A DNA stretch of 10,666 bases from a virus (Duplodnaviria > Heunggongvirae > Uroviricota > Caudoviricetes): the IMG/VR virus record IMGVR_UViG_2609459801_000016, one strand, 5' to 3'. Shown piece after piece: positions 1,114 through 10,666 of this stretch. The position numbers and the translations under genes are program-made. The stretch's first letter is position 1; each line of letters starts with the position of its first letter. The notes below the pieces were generated by a model, which made no database searches, was not told where the DNA came from, and was given only the letters and a program-made list of their open reading frames with translations.

Positions 1114-1283
1114 CTCGTTGTGGAGAATAACAAAAATGGTCATCTGGAGCTTACAGGTGGCCATTCGTGGGACAGTATCCCTGACAGCCTACAAAGCGCA
1201 ATTGAAGAACGCGAGGCATCGTCTTAACGAGGCACCGAGGCGTCGCATTCTTCAGATGGTTCAACCCTTAAGTTAGCGCTTAT
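1..1283 (+). mobile_element. IS186-like insertion sequence, partial (left end lies upstream of the window); right end inferred near 1280-1284
   Basis: Transposase ORF plus about 170 bp of 3' non-coding sequence ending in the palindrome-rich ...CAACCCTTAAGTTAGCGCTTATG (1262-1283), which I recall as the IS186 terminus. It is followed by a G/C-rich flank (GGGGTGCCGGTGGGG), consistent with the known GC-rich target preference of IS186. The other end is not in the window, so inverted repeat and target duplication cannot be confirmed. Confidence 0.55.
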
Positions 1284-1426
1284 GGGGTGCCGGTGGGGTC
1301 GAGATACGTGGTGTTTTCTTTCCCTTCCCAGTAGCCGGTGTAGTGCGTGGCAATAGTGAACGTCCCGGCTCCGGCCAGAACAAGGGCAATCAGCTTTTTA
1401 CGCAGTGGCGCGGGGAGTTTTGGCAT
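1280..1426 (-). pseudogene. 5' fragment (48 codons) of a SAR-type lysozyme endolysin, truncated by the IS insertion
   Basis: ATG at 1426..1424, translation MPKLPAPLRKKLIALVLAGAGTFTIATHYTGYWEGKENTTYLDPTGTP then TAA at 1282..1280 inside the putative IS terminus. Lys-rich N-terminus plus Gly/Ala-rich weakly hydrophobic segment resembles a signal-anchor-release domain. E34-G35...Y41-L42-D43...G46 fits the start of the E-8aa-D-5aa-T catalytic motif of T4-lysozyme-like (GH24) endolysins; the reading frame is cut just before the expected Thr. Confidence 0.5.
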
Positions 1427-1990: not shown

Positions 1991-2503
1991 TTAAAAGGGG
2001 GAGGATTCTTCATACAGCCTGCAAACGCGCTCATAACTCATCACTGTACGCGCTGACATCCCCAGCACATCCAGCATCTTGCGGCGGTGCCAGCGTTTGA
2101 GACGCTCCAGCACATCAGAGGCCAGCGCGGGGTGTTGTTCCAGCCACTGCCAGTTAGCCACACCTTCGCCGCCGTTCTGAGCGACCGTCTGCGATTTCAC
2201 CCAGCGGTTAAGGGCTGTTTCCCCGCCATCAGAGATAAAGCCCTGCCGGTGCATCACCTTCCAGATGGCGCGAATTTTGGCGGTCACCGTACCCGGTTTT
2301 AAGGCCCGGTTAACCGGCTTCTGACGCACTTTAAAACCGCGTTTTTTGAAAACATCCAGCACGCGGGATAACTCATCCGGTGACATATCCCGGCAACTGG
2401 GTTTGCCGGTGGCTGCCAGTAGTACGGATGTGTAGGTCTCATGGTCAAGCTGTAGATCGCGTTTTGCGACATGTATTAAGGTAATCAGGGAAGCGCGATT
2501 CAT
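1991..2503 (-). CDS. gemA: GemA-like protein (phage Mu gp16 / DUF1018 family), 170 aa
   Basis: ATG at 2503 with GGAGA 7 nt upstream. N-terminal LITLIHVAKRDLQLDHETYTSVLLAATGKPSCRDMSPDELSRVLDVFKKRGFK fits the GemA/DUF1018 pattern as I remember it. Lies directly upstream of the mor-like gene, as in Mu. Confidence 0.7.
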   Translation of the reverse strand: MNRASLITLIHVAKRDLQLDHETYTSVLLAATGKPSCRDMSPDELSRVLDVFKKRGFKVRQKPVNRALKPGTVTAKIRAIWKVMHRQGFISDGGETALNRWVKSQTVAQNGGEGVANWQWLEQHPALASDVLERLKRWHRRKMLDVLGMSARTVMSYERVCRLYEESSPF

Positions 2504-2567
2504 TATCGTGTCTCCGTAACAACAGGCGGCATGGCAACGCCGCCCGGATAAAACTAAAGGTATCGAT

Positions 2568-2915
2568 ATGAAAATAGATTACGATGAAGTATTAAGTATT
2601 CTCACAACTTTTCAGGATGCTGAAACACCTTTCCTTACACTACAGGATCTGGGCATGGCTGAGGCAGAAGGAGAGGAAAAGGATAAAAAAGTTTTTCATC
2701 TTATGCTTCTCGCTGATAATGGCTCAATTGTTAATGGTGATATGCAGTCAGAAACACCCAAATATATTGGTTTCTTTTTCCATTCTCTGGGCGTTGGTTT
2801 CAGAAACACGCCCATTATGCTTACCCAGCAGGGGCATGATTTAGCTAACGCCCTGAGAAAAAACCAATCCTTGAAAGAATCAAAAAGGAGTTTACAGACG
2901 CACCATTTGATCTAA
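2568..2915 (+). CDS. Hypothetical 115-aa protein on the opposite strand to the early operon; possibly DUF2513-like
   Basis: ATG at 2568 with AAAGG 7 nt upstream; no competing minus-strand ORF of 60 aa or more. Visibly more AT-rich than the flanking genes. MKIDYDEVLSIL..., FHLMLLADNGSIV and LTQQGHDLANAL loosely resemble the remembered DUF2513 pattern (MKRDxDLIRxIL...HLxLLxEAGLI...LTWxGHDFLD); this assignment is tentative. Confidence 0.55.
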   Translation: MKIDYDEVLSILTTFQDAETPFLTLQDLGMAEAEGEEKDKKVFHLMLLADNGSIVNGDMQSETPKYIGFFFHSLGVGFRNTPIMLTQQGHDLANALRKNQSLKESKRSLQTHHLI

Positions 2916-2938
2916 TTAAAGAAGTTACCAAATCAATG

Positions 2939-3247
2939 TTAACCAGGTTCGTCAAAGAACGTATTGGGATTGACTGAACAACTTAATTCAGCCAGTAATC
3001 GCAGGGCGGCGACAGCCGCCTGCTTGTCACTTCTTTTAGCTATTTCCGCAAGAGTATGCACAATCCATAACGGACTTAACGCCACGGCTGAATCCAGAAT
3101 CATGTCATCCATAATAATTTCTGGCATATCCCGCTTGTCACATTCTTTATCCATAAAAGAAACGAATTTCTCTGCATCTTCCGGTTTCATGCCTCCGGCG
3201 ATAAGGATTTTGCGATATTCATAAGACGATCTTAATTCAATACTCAT
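2939..3247 (-). CDS. Hypothetical protein, 102 aa (last gene of the gam-to-gemA cassette)
   Basis: ATG at 3247 with AGGTGA 3 nt upstream; 15-bp gap from the upstream gene. No family recognised. Confidence 0.55.
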   Translation of the reverse strand: MSIELRSSYEYRKILIAGGMKPEDAEKFVSFMDKECDKRDMPEIIMDDMILDSAVALSPLWIVHTLAEIAKRSDKQAAVAALRLLAELSCSVNPNTFFDEPG

Positions 3248-3262
3248 TATTCACCTGCCTGC

Positions 3263-3613
3263 TTAATCTGTTTCCAGTGCTTTGCTACGGGCTATAGCCT
3301 CACATTCAAAAAATACCGACTCCGGCACGCGCTCTTTTAATTCACGAACAAGGAAATCATTAACGCGTTCATGACGTCTTATATTTCTTTCCTTTTCCTC
3401 CTGGCGCAATACAGCAAGGCGGTATTCAACAGCCCGGCGTTGTTTCTGAAAGACAGCCAGTGCTTTTCTGGCAGCATTACGCCATGCATCATCGCCACAT
3501 GGTGCGTATTCAAGCTGAAATTTAATCTCTTCAATAGTTTCTTTGATTTTTGCCAGCAAGCTAAGACAGTCGCTTATTGTCTCCAGCTTTTCATTATCAA
3601 TATAACTTCTCAC
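3263..3613 (-). CDS. Hypothetical charged, probably helical protein, about 116 aa
   Basis: The ORF track begins at a GTG at 3655. I prefer the in-frame GTG at 3613..3611 because it is preceded by GGGAGGTG with 6-nt spacing and overlaps the upstream stop as GTGA. Lys/Arg/Glu-rich sequence; no family recognised. Confidence 0.5.
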   Translation of the reverse strand: MRSYIDNEKLETISDCLSLLAKIKETIEEIKFQLEYAPCGDDAWRNAARKALAVFQKQRRAVEYRLAVLRQEEKERNIRRHERVNDFLVRELKERVPESVFFECEAIARSKALETD

Positions 3614-3939
3614 GCATTCACCTCCCGTAATTCCGGTAAAGCCGAAATATGACACCAGTGCGTCACCTGTCCGTCTTCATCTTCAAGGCAGGCTCCGGTT
3701 TCTTCATCAACAAAAAAGCCTTCATACCCCATATGGCCGATGCGCAGCTCCTGACGGTGACCATACTGAACAATCAGCACGACAGCCTCCATATCAGGTG
3801 GGAAAGTATCATTCAGTGAATGCCAGGGATAACCGCGTAAATCCCCGAAATAAACACCGGTCAGCGTTCCGCCACAGAGCGGCATTCCGGCGGCACACAC
3901 AAGAGGTTCATCTGATTCAACAAATAAGGTCGTTATCAT
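3610..3939 (-). CDS. Hypothetical protein, 109 aa; C-terminal VTHW...LPE motif reminiscent of DUF551 phage proteins
   Basis: ATG at 3939 overlaps the upstream stop as ATGA, with GGGAG 8 nt upstream. The C-terminal GQVTHWCHISALPE resembles the conserved C-terminal motif of DUF551 proteins as I recall them; weak assignment. Confidence 0.55.
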   Translation of the reverse strand: MITTLFVESDEPLVCAAGMPLCGGTLTGVYFGDLRGYPWHSLNDTFPPDMEAVVLIVQYGHRQELRIGHMGYEGFFVDEETGACLEDEDGQVTHWCHISALPELREVNA

Positions 3940-4487
3940 GGCGTTAACTCCCGTAATACAGCGTCCTCGGCAGTCCGGCGACGGTAATAAACTGCGTGAG
4001 CAGAATGTTCAGATATTCCAAACTTTTCGCCAATTTCCCGGAATGACAGACGGCGTGGGTAATCGGAATCACGCAGCGCACGTATAAGACGTACATCATC
4101 ATCAGATATGCGCGTGCCGGGGCGTAACTCTCCGCACTTTGTTAATCCAGCACCAATCATTCCTGCCCGACATCTGACAGAATCTTTATTACGTCCGAGA
4201 TATTCTCCCATTTGCTGGCAGGTCATTGTTCTGGCATTTTTTCGAATAAACTTATCTTCATCAGGTGTAAATCTTGGGTGTTTATATTTCAGTAACTCCG
4301 GGTATGAACTGCGCAATACACCAGTCCGGTTATATACAGCCCAGACAGTTCTTTTTATTCTGGCAGCAATATCCTTAACCGGGGTGGATGAATAAAGCGC
4401 AATCAGCAGCGCATCTTCTTCAGGTGTCCACGGACGGACATGAGCGGGGGCGCGACCTTTTAGTCCCATGGGTTGTAATTTCATCAT
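3936..4487 (-). CDS. Predicted DNA-binding protein with two Myb/GcrA-like HTH repeats and a third C-terminal HTH, 183 aa
   Basis: ATG at 4487 with GGGGGTGA upstream. Repeat 1 WTPEEDALLIALYSSTPVKDIAARIKRTVWAVYNRTGVL and repeat 2 FTPDEDKFIRKNARTMTCQQMGEYLGRNKDSVRCRAGMIG both follow the W/F-T-x-E/D-E-D...I/M-A/G...R..AV pattern of GcrA-N/Myb-like HTH domains. The C-terminal LSFREIGEKFGISEHSAHAVYYRR looks like a further HTH. Confidence 0.6.
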   Translation of the reverse strand: MMKLQPMGLKGRAPAHVRPWTPEEDALLIALYSSTPVKDIAARIKRTVWAVYNRTGVLRSSYPELLKYKHPRFTPDEDKFIRKNARTMTCQQMGEYLGRNKDSVRCRAGMIGAGLTKCGELRPGTRISDDDVRLIRALRDSDYPRRLSFREIGEKFGISEHSAHAVYYRRRTAEDAVLRELTP

Positions 4488-4490
4488 GCA

Positions 4491-5006
4491 TCACCCCCTG
4501 ACTCGCTTTTCAGCAGCATAAAACTCATCAGACAGTATTTCGGTCATTTTCTGTTTTGCGGGTTTTACGCCGCACTGAAGGTAAATCACATCGTCAACGC
4601 AGAACCACTTCACAGGGCCAAACAGGATTGCCGAGAAATCAATACCCAGCCAGAACAACAGCGCATCGGTTCTGGCATACGTGACGGGCGAATATTCACG
4701 CCACAGACTGTTCAGTTCATCAGAGGCAACACGCAGGGTTTTAGGGATACGTGATGTGCGCGGTGTGCAGCTCCAGCCATTCGACGCAGTCGGTTTTCGC
4801 CATAAGTCGCGATGAAAAGGATATTTGTCCTCCGTAAAACGCAGTCCCTTAAAGCAAAATCCACTGATACCGGATACAAATACCGACCGGCACGCAACAT
4901 TCAGCACGGCCTCAAGGCGTTTTGCCTCATCCTTAACTTTCTGGCAGTCCTGCTGGTATTTTTGCCACGCAGCCAGCGCGGAAGGGTTTGATGTTTTAAA
5001 GAACAT
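4491..5006 (-). CDS. Hypothetical protein, 171 aa
   Basis: ATG at 5006 with GGAGGTG 5 nt upstream; start overlaps the upstream stop as TAATG. No family recognised. Confidence 0.6.
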   Translation of the reverse strand: MFFKTSNPSALAAWQKYQQDCQKVKDEAKRLEAVLNVACRSVFVSGISGFCFKGLRFTEDKYPFHRDLWRKPTASNGWSCTPRTSRIPKTLRVASDELNSLWREYSPVTYARTDALLFWLGIDFSAILFGPVKWFCVDDVIYLQCGVKPAKQKMTEILSDEFYAAEKRVRG

Positions 5007-5539
5007 TACGCCACCTCCGCAGATATCCCGGCAGGCGCTGCTGTCCGGTCAACAATCAGGTAGCGCAGAACATGTTCAGTGATATTCCAGCCGCTTAAAC
5101 CGCAGATAATGACGCCCAGGCGTATGTCGATATACGCCATCACAAACTGGGGCACGCCTTCTTTCATGGCCTGCTCATCAACTTCAGCCACCACATAAAC
5201 GGTTTCACAGGTCAGAACGCCCTGAGCAAATTCCCACGCCATCGACGGAATATCATGCCCCTCAATCCATGGCAGGGATTTTCTGAAGCCGCACCACTGA
5301 ACATCATCAGCCGCAGATTCCTGGCTGCATTTGCGACGAACCGGCTGCACCGGGCGGGGGCGCGGAATATCATAAAAACCGTTACATTCCGTCAGCACGC
5401 CTGCATCAACCGCATCACGCAGAAAATAAACCATGGAGGATGGCGGCATATTCATTTTTTCAGCCAGTACACCGCAGGTCAGGCGGCCATAAATACGCAG
5501 CCAGTTTTTAACCCCTTCAAGCACTTTTGCATCAATCAT
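5006..5539 (-). CDS. Hypothetical protein with N-terminal winged-HTH-like segment, 177 aa (first gene after the post-gam leader)
   Basis: ATG at 5539 preceded by GGTGGGGAAA. The N-terminal NWLRIYGRLTCGVLAEKMNMPPSSMVYFLRDAVDAGVLTE resembles Lrp/AsnC- or MarR-like wHTH spacing. The C-terminal domain is not recognised. Confidence 0.6.
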   Translation of the reverse strand: MIDAKVLEGVKNWLRIYGRLTCGVLAEKMNMPPSSMVYFLRDAVDAGVLTECNGFYDIPRPRPVQPVRRKCSQESAADDVQWCGFRKSLPWIEGHDIPSMAWEFAQGVLTCETVYVVAEVDEQAMKEGVPQFVMAYIDIRLGVIICGLSGWNITEHVLRYLIVDRTAAPAGISAEVA

Positions 5540-5684
5540 GATTTATTTCCCCACCACATTATTAATGACGATATAAACGTATTTCATATTTCTTAACCCT
5601 TATTTTCTGTTTTCAGGCGCAAGCAGTCCCCTGACGCGAGCGCCATAATTAAAATGAAGTGATATTTAATTGATTAATGCGGTG
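5540..5684 (-). promoter_or_regulatory. AT-rich 145-bp leader between gam and the downstream cassette; candidate internal promoter/operator
   Basis: Only long non-coding gap inside the otherwise tightly packed early operon. Contains the 11-bp perfect palindrome CATTATTAATG (5557-5567) about 18 nt upstream of the ATG and several -10/-35-like hexamers (TTAAGA, TATATC). No promoter could be assigned confidently by eye. Confidence 0.3.
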
Positions 5685-6215
5685 TTATTTATTCAGTCCG
5701 GCGTCCTGTTCAAAAGGCTCGACATAAAAACTTTCAGCGCCTTTATTCACCTTGATACCGGCAATGCCTTTCACAGCATCCGGCTCCGCCAGGACGGCTT
5801 CCTTGTTCACTTCCTCTTTCGTGCGGATGAAACGCTCAAGCCCCATACGGCGCAGCATTTCAATCACACCTTCCACATCACGGCTGACGCTGCATGATGG
5901 CGTTCCCAGCCGCCATGACACCGTTCCGGTGGTCAGATTGGCTGTTTTGGTTTTGCCGCCGTTCGTCAGCTCATCACGGTTGGTTTTGCACCAGTCCTGA
6001 ATCCCTTTAAAAAGCACTTTGATTTGCTTTTTAAGATTTTCAATCTGCGGCGTATAACGGGCGGTGATTTCTGCCACTTCGTCATTCATCGCCGTTTCCA
6101 GGCGCAGCGCCTCTCGCTGAATATCTCCCAGGGTGCGGATATCACGGCTGACTTCTTCCCGGGTCTGCGGTGCCGCCTCGGCTGCGGCCTTTAATTTTGT
6201 AACGCGTTTAGCCAT
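5685..6215 (-). CDS. gam: Host-nuclease inhibitor protein Gam (Mu Gam family), 176 aa
   Basis: ATG at 6215 with AAGGA upstream. The translation aligns along its whole length with Mu Gam as I recall it (e.g. ...WCKTNRDELTNGGKTKTANLTTGTVSWRL...RFIRTKEEVNKEAVL...PFEQDAGL). Confidence 0.9.
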   Translation of the reverse strand: MAKRVTKLKAAAEAAPQTREEVSRDIRTLGDIQREALRLETAMNDEVAEITARYTPQIENLKKQIKVLFKGIQDWCKTNRDELTNGGKTKTANLTTGTVSWRLGTPSCSVSRDVEGVIEMLRRMGLERFIRTKEEVNKEAVLAEPDAVKGIAGIKVNKGAESFYVEPFEQDAGLNK

Positions 6216-7567: not shown

Positions 7568-8500
7568 TCACACCTGTGAGAGTAATTCAGGGTTGGTATA
7601 AACCTCTTTAAAGGCCGCATTAATATGTTTTTCTGTCAGCGCCGCGCCTTCACCGCTGGCGGTGAGCCACGCCTGGTTAAGCGTATGTGTCAGAACGCGT
7701 AACGCTCCCGGCTTTTCAGCGATAGCCTGCATGACGGCCAGCTCGGCCTCACCACTGATCCCCCACGCCATGGCAATGGCCAGCACATCCGCCTTTTTGG
7801 CCTTGCGAAGTTGTTTTGTACGGGCAAGACGGCTGAACAGGCGCGATAAATCATCAAAGGCGCGGCGTCCACCTTTAAACAATCCGCGCGGGTTACCAAT
7901 AAGCACCATCCCGATCCCCGTGGCGTCCTGAATTGCCCGGAGTTGCTCCAGACCGTCAATACCAAGATGATCCGCCTCATCCACAATCACCAGTCCACGC
8001 GTTCCCATCAGGCGACGGCGGATGGCGCGGGATAATGCCCCTTTGTTCGCGCGGGTGTAATCAATCCCCAGCGCATCGGCCAGCTCCAGCAGACACTCCG
8101 TGACGCTGGAGTGCGCGGGTGACAGGGTGATCATCCAGGTGTTTGGTTGCTCCTGGCAGTAATTACGGGCAGTGGCCGTTTTACCCACACCCGGTACGCC
8201 CACAATAACGTTAATACAGCCCATCAGGCGAACCGCCTGAAACAGTGCGCGCAGCTCCTGGACTGTCTGAGTTTCCACAAACTGCGGCGGTTCCGGCAGT
8301 GCGCTTTGTTTATTCCAGTTCTCATACCAGGAGCGCAGGGAAGCAGCCACAGCGGCGTTATCGCCTTTATATTTCCCCTTGCGGAAAGCCGATAATGTGC
8401 CGTCGGAAATTCCCGCCTCTCTGGCGATGGCATACTGCGTCAGCACGCCGCCATCAATAAGTTCATCAATGGTCTTGATTACATCGTTTATATCGGTCAT
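7568..8500 (-). CDS. B: MuB-like transposition ATPase / target DNA activator, 310 aa
   Basis: ATG at 8500 with GAGGT upstream. Walker A GVPGVGKT, Walker B-like LVIVDEADHL, and end-to-end similarity to Mu B as I recall it (ETQTV..., KPGALRVL...). Lies directly downstream of the transposase. Confidence 0.9.
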   Translation of the reverse strand: MTDINDVIKTIDELIDGGVLTQYAIAREAGISDGTLSAFRKGKYKGDNAAVAASLRSWYENWNKQSALPEPPQFVETQTVQELRALFQAVRLMGCINVIVGVPGVGKTATARNYCQEQPNTWMITLSPAHSSVTECLLELADALGIDYTRANKGALSRAIRRRLMGTRGLVIVDEADHLGIDGLEQLRAIQDATGIGMVLIGNPRGLFKGGRRAFDDLSRLFSRLARTKQLRKAKKADVLAIAMAWGISGEAELAVMQAIAEKPGALRVLTHTLNQAWLTASGEGAALTEKHINAAFKEVYTNPELLSQV

Positions 8501-8539: not shown

Positions 8540-8580
8540 AATAACCTGAGTCGCCGCTCGGGTTATTTTTTTATTTCAGG
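8540..8580. other. Stem-loop with T/A-rich flanks in the A-B intergenic region
   Basis: AATAACCTGAG (8540-8550) / CTCGGGTTATT (8557-8567): 11-bp stem with one G-U pair and a 6-nt loop. Followed on the plus strand by TTTTTTATTT, and on the minus-strand mRNA by UUGAUUAAAC before the B ribosome-binding site. Confidence 0.4.
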
Positions 8581-10666
8581 CCAGAGGGTCATTTTCTTTT
8601 AATTTCGCTTCAAGCAGCTGCAATCCCCGCTGGAAATTACGCTCGTATTCTTCATCAGGTTCATCGTCAGCGACCGGTTGCTGAACGATCACCGTATTAC
8701 CCACAGGGCGGTATATATTTTCCAGCCACGGCTCCTGTGGCTTGTGCTCCAGCACGTTGACAATCTCATCCTCGGCATCACGGATTTTTTCCTCTGCGCG
8801 TTTACGCATGCCTTTAAGGCGCTGCTGCTGTTTGTGGTATTCCGCGCTGACCGGGAAGGCTTCGCGTTTATTGCCGTCCCATACCGCCTCGCAAATCACG
8901 CTGCCATCCAGGCGACGTACGGTAATTCGTTCGGCATCATGAATGTCATAGCTGATAAGCACCTTACGACCATGCTCGTCACGCAGCTCGGGCGCGTAGT
9001 AAATATTATTCAGCCAGCGTATTTCACAGCGTCTTACAGGGCGTTCCACCATCGGCCGGAACATATCCCGCAGCTCAACATCGGACAGCCATTCAATTTC
9101 CGTGTCCTCTTCCGCCAGGCGTTTTTTTCTGAACTCCGCCGGGCTGTAATGCTTGCCGTTCGGCTTCACCGGTAATTCATCGTGCGGCCGGTTGTTGTAC
9201 CACTCAACACCATCACGAATGGCATCAATCAGTTCAGCCCAGGACGGTGAATCACGCATCGCTGACTGCTGCCGGGCGTTCAGCCGTTTGCCCTGTTGCA
9301 GGGCAGTAAATGCCGAGCGTAAATCGCGGTTGGTTTTGCGTAACGTCTCGCGATCTGCACCTTTCCCGAAATAGGTGCGGTATTTACGGGCTATGCGCAT
9401 CGGTAATGTGCGGTTAAGCCGTTCGATAATGCCTCGTCCCTGCGGATTACCGGCAATCCCGGTCGGGTGATTAATCCCCAGTCGCGGCAGTATCCCCACA
9501 ACCTCCTTATCCAGGATGTCGGCGGTTTCCCCGGAGCCGTTATCCGAGTAATACAGAAACGGTTTGCCGTGATGGCGAATGCCGTGCTGTATGGCACCGG
9601 CTACGGCGAAAACATTTTCAGCCAGGTCAAGGCTCCAGCCCACCACAAAGCGCGTGCCACCGTCGATAACAAAGGTCACTTCCGGTGCAAATGGCCGACC
9701 GTGAACCGGGTGTGCGCATTTCAGCTTCATGCCGTGACCGTCACCAATCCAGACATAATTCACCGGCATTCTGGACCAGTCGCGGCGCGTGAATCCCTCA
9801 AGCTGGCGGTATTCACTGCCGGTCACCCGGCCTTTTTGTTTCACCACTTCCGGCAGTTTCTTCATTGCGCGGCGAATGGTGTCATAAGACGGCATGATAT
9901 CGAGCATATAAGGCTCATCAGCGTGCCGGTGCTGCCATTCAGCGACAAAATCCTCGTAAGCCTCGGTCATTGGTCGGCCGTTTGACTGGCGATACTGCGC
10001 CAGAAATTCGGGCAGCCAGTTAATATCTTCGGCTTTTATTTCCTGGCGCTTACCCGGTGCCAGTAAAAGCAGGCGTTCAGCGGCGTTCTGCGCCTTGTTA
10101 AAGGCCGCAATCCAGCGTTTCAGCGTGATTTCACTTAACGCGCGGCTGTTTCCCTTTTTGGCGTTCGCCGTCTCAACCATTGCCACAATGCGCTCGTCCA
10201 GCTGCGAACGTGCCAGGTTGTCAACGATAAACCGGATAGCCTTCGCACAGCTGAAACCAGGTTGTTGCGCGACTTTCAGAACTTCGCTGACGATCGCGAT
10301 TCGTGCATCAGCCACCTGGCGCTGGTTTTCAGTCAGGGCATTAAGGCGTTCGACCATCAGTTGTGGTGATCCGCGATATGCCTCCACCGCATCAACCACG
10401 GCAGGCGAGCGTCTGGCCTTTGTCACCACTGGAGCCGGTGATTCATCGACTTTTTGAGTCATCAGTTGCAGGGCGTAGCGTTCACGTAATGCCTGCTGCG
10501 TCACTTCAGGTAAACAGTCGATGCTGTATTCAGTTGCTTTAGAGCCTGAGCGACGACGGGAACAACAGCTTTTCCCTTGTACGTAACGTTGTAATGCCTG
10601 GCGAATACCTTTTGTTGTAGCAGGCATTCCGGGCGCACCAATCAGTTCTTTTGCAATGACATACAT
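8576..10666 (-). CDS. A: MuA-like DDE transposase, 696 aa
   Basis: ATG at the window edge (10666..10664); the true start could be a codon or two upstream but the N-terminus (YVIAKELIGAPGMP) aligns with the Mu A N-terminus as I recall it. Central catalytic region (...WIGDGHGMKL..., ...YYSDNGSGE...) and C-terminal RPVGNT...DDEPDEEYER tail also resemble Mu A. Confidence 0.9.
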   Translation of the reverse strand: MYVIAKELIGAPGMPATTKGIRQALQRYVQGKSCCSRRRSGSKATEYSIDCLPEVTQQALRERYALQLMTQKVDESPAPVVTKARRSPAVVDAVEAYRGSPQLMVERLNALTENQRQVADARIAIVSEVLKVAQQPGFSCAKAIRFIVDNLARSQLDERIVAMVETANAKKGNSRALSEITLKRWIAAFNKAQNAAERLLLLAPGKRQEIKAEDINWLPEFLAQYRQSNGRPMTEAYEDFVAEWQHRHADEPYMLDIMPSYDTIRRAMKKLPEVVKQKGRVTGSEYRQLEGFTRRDWSRMPVNYVWIGDGHGMKLKCAHPVHGRPFAPEVTFVIDGGTRFVVGWSLDLAENVFAVAGAIQHGIRHHGKPFLYYSDNGSGETADILDKEVVGILPRLGINHPTGIAGNPQGRGIIERLNRTLPMRIARKYRTYFGKGADRETLRKTNRDLRSAFTALQQGKRLNARQQSAMRDSPSWAELIDAIRDGVEWYNNRPHDELPVKPNGKHYSPAEFRKKRLAEEDTEIEWLSDVELRDMFRPMVERPVRRCEIRWLNNIYYAPELRDEHGRKVLISYDIHDAERITVRRLDGSVICEAVWDGNKREAFPVSAEYHKQQQRLKGMRKRAEEKIRDAEDEIVNVLEHKPQEPWLENIYRPVGNTVIVQQPVADDEPDEEYERNFQRGLQLLEAKLKENDPLA

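Follow-up and report, generated by a model that had tools for sequence, protein, structure and literature searches.

Through the analysis of a viral DNA stretch of 10,666 nucleotides (IMG/VR record IMGVR_UViG_2609459801_000016, the whole of which is called the window here), the region at positions 2939-5684 has been recognised as what is probably the distal half of the semi-essential early region of an Sp18-group, Mu-family transposable prophage of Escherichia coli. This degree of confidence applies jointly to the identity of the region, its expression, its gene content, its leader and the roles proposed below. The region carries six minus-strand open reading frames (ORFs), named c1 to c6 from the gam side to the gemA side (Table 1), and is preceded by a gap containing a conserved stem-loop module, a feature for which no description in Mu was found. 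An earlier note on this DNA had presented the ORFs as a translationally coupled cassette of unrecognised proteins with its own AT-rich leader; its observations proved largely correct, but the interpretation as an autonomous cassette with its own leader did not.

On the minus strand the window reads, from 5' to 3', MuA, MuB, a kil-family gene, gam, c1-c6, gemA and mor. From position 1284 onward it shows 99.3% DNA identity to a prophage in E. coli AF39, annotated gene by gene at NCBI, and about 90% to prophage Sp18 of E. coli O157:H7 Sakai. Gene order together with DNA identity to annotated prophages places the six ORFs in the early operon of a Mu-like transposable prophage. The interval 2504-5684 is matched in 232 of 5426 complete E. 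coli genomes (about 4%), including O157:H7. In phage Mu, the promoter Pe gives rise to a single transcript that extends from ner to C and includes a “largely uncharacterized” semi-essential (SE) region (PMC3820752). By homology with Mu, the early transcript of the present prophage would begin at Pe, upstream of ner, A and B, and read through c1-c6.

The six ORFs are real genes, as had been supposed: the gene annotations of near-identical E. coli genomes include all of them, every one has a PHROG match, and the ratio of non-synonymous to synonymous substitution rates (dN/dS) is 0.06-0.3 across c1-c6, much like that of gam and gemA, which points to purifying selection. These ratios and the family matches rule out chance ORFs. 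The junctions are exactly as noted earlier, with spacings of -1 nt between c1 and c2 (TAATG), +3 nt between c2 and c3, -4 nt between c3 and c4 (ATGA), -4 nt between c4 and c5 (GTGA) and +15 nt between c5 and c6, and a purine-rich Shine-Dalgarno-like stretch lies upstream of every one of the six starts. This geometry has the features of a translationally coupled operon: (i) genes on the same strand; (ii) overlapping or near stop and start codons; (iii) internal ribosome-binding sites (RBS). The six are very probably tightly coupled and co-expressed early genes, and their overlapping or abutting stops and starts would allow translation by close coupling.

That the proteins are unrecognised holds only in part, since c1 matches Pfam Gp11_C, the relatives of c2 carry PF26885 and all six are classed in PHROG. 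The c1 product is 69% identical to Mu gp11 over its full length of 177 aa. It shows the marks of the gp11 family, namely PF25754 (Gp11_C; 5.8e-41, 139 bits at a cut-off of 27), phrog_1949 (8e-106) and the position after gam, and its dN/dS is about 0.1. Its architecture consists of three N-terminal helices, possibly a winged helix, and the C-terminal Gp11_C domain. The HTH_20 model matched only 3 of 27 relatives (E 0.012), and the structure model was poor (predicted local distance difference test, pLDDT, 53.6) and unfit for a fold search. The c2 product is 54% identical to Mu gp12 over 169 aa, lies directly after the gp11 counterpart and belongs to phrog_2314 (1e-84). Although the local Pfam copy gave no match to c2 itself, PF26885 (“Mu-Gp12 family”) is carried by all 46 c2 homologues (46/46) and a 100%-identical protein is named “Mu-Gp12 family protein”, which places c2 in the gp12 family. 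No solved structure related to the gp12 fold was found. By similarity and gene order, c1 is orthologous to Mu gp11 and c2 to Mu gp12, the two standing in Mu's order directly after gam. At the sensitivity used, both families were seen only in E. coli, Salmonella and Citrobacter.

The remaining genes behave differently. When 59 distinct gp11-gemA intervals were compared, drawn from Mu, from E. coli prophages and from IMG/VR contigs, about 30 gene orders were counted; gp11 invariably comes first and gp12 usually second, while the presence of c3, of c4 (often with a homologue of Mu gp13), of c5, of c6 (with or without a convergent DUF2513-like gene) and of other small genes varies. The exact order of the window recurs in only a few of the 59, and c3, c4 and c5 have no counterpart in the gam-gemA interval of Mu. 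The alternative posed by the earlier note, conserved Mu core or lineage-specific cargo, is therefore divided by these comparisons: c1-c2 are Mu core, placed and ordered as they are in Mu, whereas c3-c6 are exchangeable accessory cargo that differs between prophages. A self-contained six-gene unit is not borne out, and calling the six genes a cassette misleads, since they do not move as a set.

Among the closest described counterparts is the semi-essential region of Mu (genes 11-14, the old E10-E15, from gam to gemA), which shares the early-operon position, the leading gp11-gp12 pair in the same order and the stem-loop spacer after gam, and is functionally uncharacterised as well. In the part where this prophage carries c3-c6 and the DUF2513-like gene, Mu instead has gp13, gp14 and an opposite-strand gp15 whose status is debated. 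Prophage Sp18 (Sakai, ECs_4953 to ECs_4959) is of the same family and has homologues of c1, c2, c3 and c6. Unlike the window, which has only a 14-codon scar there, Sp18 has a gene of 180 aa between gam and c1; it also lacks c4 and c5 and carries two small coupled genes in place of the DUF2513-like gene.

Among the accessory genes, c3 (phrog_323, 2e-52) is absent from Mu at this position. Its product is predicted to bind DNA, having two Myb-like repeats and, at the C-terminus, a helix-turn-helix (HTH) resembling sigma-70 region 4, in line with the Myb-like and HTH features remarked on before. A profile of six relatives matched the R2R3 structures of B-Myb and c-Myb at residues 19-105 (E 0.004), relatives matched Sigma70_r4 (7.7e-07), and NCBI annotates the protein as SANT/Myb-like; the Pfam Myb_DNA-binding model gave c3 itself 20.7 bits against a cut-off of 24.4. 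Two alleles of about 72% identity exist among E. coli prophages. The phrog_323 member of Mu, gp9, is encoded upstream of gam, in contrast to c3 after the gp12 counterpart, and pairwise similarity between gp9 and c3 is undetectable.

The c4 product (phrog_6925, 9e-51) represents a narrow family: only 15 clusters match it in a set of 1.84 billion representatives. Of the genes in the region, c4 is under the strongest constraint (dN/dS 0.06), and in Salmonella and Citrobacter Mu-like prophages its identity is 82-85%, where that of c1 (gp11) is about 62%. The DUF551-like motif reported earlier does exist as a weak resemblance at the C-terminus (W...P...VTHW..P, VTHW..P..P), but not at a significant level, as DUF551 (PF04448) did not match c4 at E up to 10 and only two of six relatives (2/6) reached E 0.025. 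A tblastn search of GenBank phages with c4 returned only two Shiga toxin (Stx) phages, both with an inserted Mu-like element. The c5 gene (phrog_6158, 1e-54) is a variable accessory gene present in some relatives only. Within the 130-aa ORF, the phrog_6158 alignment begins at residue 15, in support of a GTG start at 3613, the start also annotated by NCBI in a 100%-identical locus (L002). Measured against alleles that differ at the amino-acid level, its dN/dS is 0.10-0.27, and the protein appears helical from its sequence. The c6 product (phrog_1988, 1e-38) shares 36% identity (E 5e-11) with the protein that contig L117 has in the gp14 slot, shows no similarity to Mu gp14 itself and weakly matches designed helical repeat proteins. 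It is a putative helical-repeat-like protein whose family occupies the gp14 slot in some Muvirus genomes.

The proteins of c1-c6 probably provide dispensable early functions that act on DNA (c1, c3) or on host factors (c4) and favour lytic growth. A more specific proposal is that c3-c6, with the DUF5420-type gene of relatives, form an arms-race island of anti-defence, host-takeover or superinfection-exclusion genes; it concerns function only and is compatible with the assignment of the region to the semi-essential part of the early operon. Mosaic presence and absence within a conserved frame, early expression and the very strong constraint on c4, as expected of a protein fitting a conserved host target, all agree with it, and a Mu-like Pseudomonas phage has genes in its early operon that do confer exclusion (PMC9936078). 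Nevertheless, PADLOC models match neither c1-c6 nor the DUF2513 protein at E up to 0.01, none of the six resembles a characterised inhibitor, gp11 and gp12 are conserved and not variable, and the literature searched on Mu gp11/gp12, Mup locus tags, DUF2513/DUF5420 and PF25754/PF26885 yielded nothing relevant to these families. We consider this proposal doubtful. The Sakai locus tags ECs4952-4957 are mentioned in one paper only, on an unrelated topic; NCBIfam models match none of c1-c6, and when solved structures were searched by sequence with c1, c2, c3, c4 and c6, and with c1 and c3 profiles, nothing came up beyond the Myb hint for c3 and the designed helical repeats for c6.

The gap between gam and c1 measures 145 nt and is AT-rich, with a GC content of 0.36 against 0.51 for the window. 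It had been described as the only sizeable non-coding gap of the early operon; the AT-richness stands, but a second stretch without a minus-strand ORF lies between c6 and gemA (2504-2938, 435 nt), where a plus-strand DUF2513-like gene is found instead. The first 95 nt or so 3' of the gam stop align with the gam-gp11 spacer of Mu and with all Sp18-type spacers, and the stem-loop region in it is about 80% identical to Mu, compared with 63% for gam. The supposed leader of a cassette is thus in its larger part a module (Table 1) that is also present in Mu and precedes at least ten unrelated genes across its copies, and for the rest a scar. Small ORFs starting from the module ATG are not conserved, so the conservation of the module is not due to coding.

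The stem-loop has the general form GGCG(C/T)-N19-(G/A)CGCC. Its outer helix is paired in 36 of 36 distinct sequences, the fifth pair being C-G in 25 and U-A in 11, a compensatory change; the stem is extended differently by clade, and its predicted stability is -13.6 to -21.8 kcal/mol throughout. A covariance model built from 17 variants scored 74.5 bits on the sense strand at 5603-5656 and 12.6 bits on the other strand, with one match in the window and one in the whole Mu genome. It found the module in all of the Mu-like groups examined with an intergenic gap at this position, including Salmonella and Citrobacter prophages without gam. An exact-pattern scan of 2.9 million viral contigs identified 77 with the module, and Mu core proteins were present in all 72 that were new to the comparison (72/72); the module was seen in Mu-like contigs only. 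Three copies exist in contig L132 and two each in L049 and L133, all intergenic and each before a different gene. Across the copies, sequences start to diverge immediately 3' of the stem.

The three copies in L132, a distant Mu-like contig, lie in successive intergenic gaps (3421-3514, 3905-3972 and 4352-4427); the loop of copies 1 and 3 is a different one, CCCGCCGGGGCUGG, and on the opposite strand these copies are followed by TTTTT, resembling antisense terminators. In the Salmonella and Citrobacter prophages (L009, L050-L058, about 4700-5340) gam was not detected and a 212-aa ORF stands in its place, and the stem-loop module, the DUF5420 gene, gp11, gp12 and c4 are still kept. A small peptide from the ATG of the conserved stem (MALASGDCLRLK...) was rejected as a candidate: the Mu version is in another frame, and several relatives have no ATG. 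Rfam gave no match in the leader at E up to 1; its sole match in the window, snoRNA sR28 (E 0.1, 1864-1943), falls short of the gathering score and is located outside the leader. An intrinsic terminator was not found, as the stem is followed by UGAAAACAG with no U-tract and a terminator scan lists no site in 5540-5684.

Tentatively, we propose that the module is the Mu-family counterpart of the promoter-early stem-loops (PeSLs) of phage T4, that is, a portable punctuation element serving early mRNA processing and stability and offering, at its 3' edge, exchange homology for accessory, possibly anti-defence, genes. Like the PeSLs of T4-like phages, it is a short conserved intergenic stem-loop motif, reiterated in some genomes (PMC2839356, PMC4122927), its neighbours are variable genes without known function, and its position matches breakpoints of insertion, deletion and replacement. 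Reiteration and gene gain or loss at its edge, two marks of a PeSL-like element, were found. The two differ in that PeSLs are composites of terminator and promoter, whereas the module has neither a promoter consensus nor a U-tract, is single-copy in the window and in Mu, and belongs to an unrelated phage family. Stem-loops between the cistrons of polycistronic mRNAs, with stabilising or processing roles, include the malE-malF REP (repetitive extragenic palindromic) element and the papB-papA structure. The module resembles them in anatomy only, through a stable GC stem without a U-tract between cistrons and an adjacent AU-rich single-stranded stretch. Within the main reading of the region, the module probably acts as punctuation on the early mRNA: this mRNA would be cleaved in the AU-rich stretch, the stem-loop would be left as a protective end and the stability of the flanking cistrons would be set in this way. 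The module probably also acts as a homologous joint for insertion, swap or loss of accessory genes.

The rest of the gap is a non-conserved part holding a 14-codon mini-ORF. Its first codons, MKYVY(I), resemble those of a gene in L056 (MKYAYFK; 15 of the first 20 nt match), its 3' end resembles the end of ORF180 in Sp18, and most Sp18-type prophages have a full gene of 180-192 aa (phrog_2260, ORF180 or DUF5420) between the module and c1. Judged from both ends, the mini-ORF is a remnant of a deleted phrog_2260/DUF5420-type gene. In front of gp11, Mu keeps only the last codons (ITEE-stop) of such a gene, so the remnants in the window and in Mu look like independent deletions; in the window, the position of the scar stop 3 nt before the c1 start means that coupling to c1 is kept. 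The 11-bp palindrome remarked on earlier does exist. It lies within this scar, outside the conserved module, and an equally good one occurs in 29% of leader shuffles, so it was rejected as a signal, being at chance level and not conserved.

In L056 (4862-5988), two phrog_2260 paralogues, one ORF180-like and one DUF5420-like, stand in tandem between the module and gp11, so this family duplicates as well as being lost. The c2 product (4491-5006) and the ORF180/DUF5420 family (L003, 4573-5115) give a collinear end-to-end alignment and have common motifs (FFK/YFK at the N-terminus, EI..EF.A at the C-terminus), and a 194-aa viral protein matches the c2 structure model with a template modelling (TM) score of 0.77. 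The hhalign comparison of c2 with ORF180/DUF5420 gave a probability of 1% at E 0.049. The gp12 and ORF180/DUF5420 proteins may be remote paralogues encoded by neighbouring genes.

An internal promoter in the leader, which would make c1-c6 a transcription unit of their own with the stem-loop as its stabilising 5' end, is unlikely. It would fit the AT-rich stretch just upstream of the stem in every copy and has a precedent in the internal early promoter Pe* of Mu (PMC3820752). However, the sole promoter-like match in the gap (9/12, at 5587-5558) falls in the non-conserved scar, and the region has fewer promoter-like sites than its shuffles (3 vs 6.5 +/- 2.8). In the conserved part of the leader no sigma-70 promoter with conserved -35 and -10 elements at 16-18 nt spacing was found, the would-be -10 varying between copies (TAATTA, TAAAAA, TTATTT). 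An inspection of the aligned copies by eye for a site of integration host factor (IHF) or a sigma-70 promoter in the AT-rich part gave no consistent consensus. Finally, although the loop GCGTCAGGGGAYTGC is conserved beyond the needs of a mere spacer and two HTH proteins are encoded adjacent, it is very unlikely that the stem-loop is a DNA site or cruciform for a phage or host protein such as a recombinase, a nucleoid protein or c1 or c3, since its orientation to the operon is constant, an RBS is always just downstream, the model scores 74.5 bits on the sense strand against 12.6 on the other, and stem extensions vary with pairing kept, as fits a transcript.

Several points weigh against the assignment and the roles set out above. 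The functions of the c1-c6 proteins are putative and the structure model of c1 is poor; it is by comparison with Mu that the genes are taken to be co-transcribed from Pe, with no transcript start in the leader. The 435 nt between c6 and gemA would be antisense to the plus-strand gene, which makes read-through to gemA uncertain. As regards the module, the stem core is nearly invariant, so that the covariation amounts to one pair and perhaps one or two evolutionary events; the alignment behind the pair counts was itself fitted to the covariance model; and the same data fit an RNA role or a DNA role of the stem-loop.

The genes themselves add little: they enlarge a part of Mu, the semi-essential early region, that has been known for long without being characterised. 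The map of conserved (gp11-gp12) and exchangeable genes shows which to test for core and which for host-specific roles. The spacer after gam stands out as a conserved, structured and sometimes reiterated element at gene-exchange breakpoints, and the module would give a simple handle on early-gene shuffling and expression tuning within one long transposable-phage operon.

Table 1. Features of the window, listed from the upstream to the downstream end of the early operon
Feature	Position	Strand	Remarks
MuA	8576-10666	minus	
MuB	7568-8500	minus	
Five small ORFs		minus	between MuB and gam; include a Kil-family protein
gam	5685..6215	minus	host-nuclease inhibitor, upstream of the six ORFs; Pfam Phage_Mu_Gam 5.5e-42; 57% identity to Mu Gam
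Conserved module	5590..5684	minus	~95 nt; order: CCGCATTAAT, AT-rich stretch, stem-loop, TGAA, Shine-Dalgarno site TAAGGG, ATG
Stem-loop GGCGC-TCGCGTCAGGGGACTGCTT-GCGCC	5616..5644	minus	-14.4 kcal/mol; small inner helix
14-codon mini-ORF MKYVYIVINNVVGK	5543..5587	minus	~45 nt; uses the module's own RBS; stop 3 nt before c1 start
11-bp palindrome CATTAATAATG	5557..5567		inside the scar, outside the conserved module
c1	5006-5539	minus	177 aa
c2	4491-5006	minus	171 aa
c3	3936-4487	minus	183 aa
c4	3610-3939	minus	109 aa
c5	3263-3613	minus	116 aa from GTG 3613
c6	2939-3247	minus	102 aa
DUF2513-like gene	2568..2915	plus	convergent with c6, interrupts the early operon before gemA; Pfam DUF2513 5.8e-05 (below curated cut-off); phrog_585
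gemA	1991..2503	minus	downstream boundary of the interval; Pfam GemA 2.8e-28; 47% identity to Mu GemA
mor	1498-1920	minus	
Lysozyme gene	1280-1426		first 48 codons only, beyond mor

The DUF2513-like gene has a GC content of 0.40-0.42 and co-occurs with c6-family genes in close and distant Mu-like relatives. Compared with a 92%-identical allele (L017), it shows 15 non-synonymous and 2 synonymous differences (dN/dS about 2), which on such small counts hints at diversifying selection. On the minus strand, a further stem-loop is located at 2508-2547 (GGGCGGCG-UUGCCAUG-CCGCCUG, -18.2 kcal/mol, then UUGUUA), just upstream of the gemA RBS. It is preceded by 435 nt of RNA that is antisense and untranslated, and might serve to attenuate early read-through to gemA and mor. 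The annotation of Mu places a separate “semi-early” promoter upstream of gemA.

At the downstream end of the window, an insertion sequence (IS) of the IS4 family occupies positions 1 to about 1283, with a 370-aa transposase at 1-1113. Since it truncates the lysozyme gene after 48 codons, this prophage copy is probably lysis-defective. All matches in complete E. coli genomes begin at 1283/1284, so the insertion is not seen elsewhere. Upstream of gam, a 93-aa minus-strand ORF at 6794-7075 matches phrog_1518, “host nuclease inhibitor” (2e-42), and may encode a second nuclease inhibitor besides Gam.

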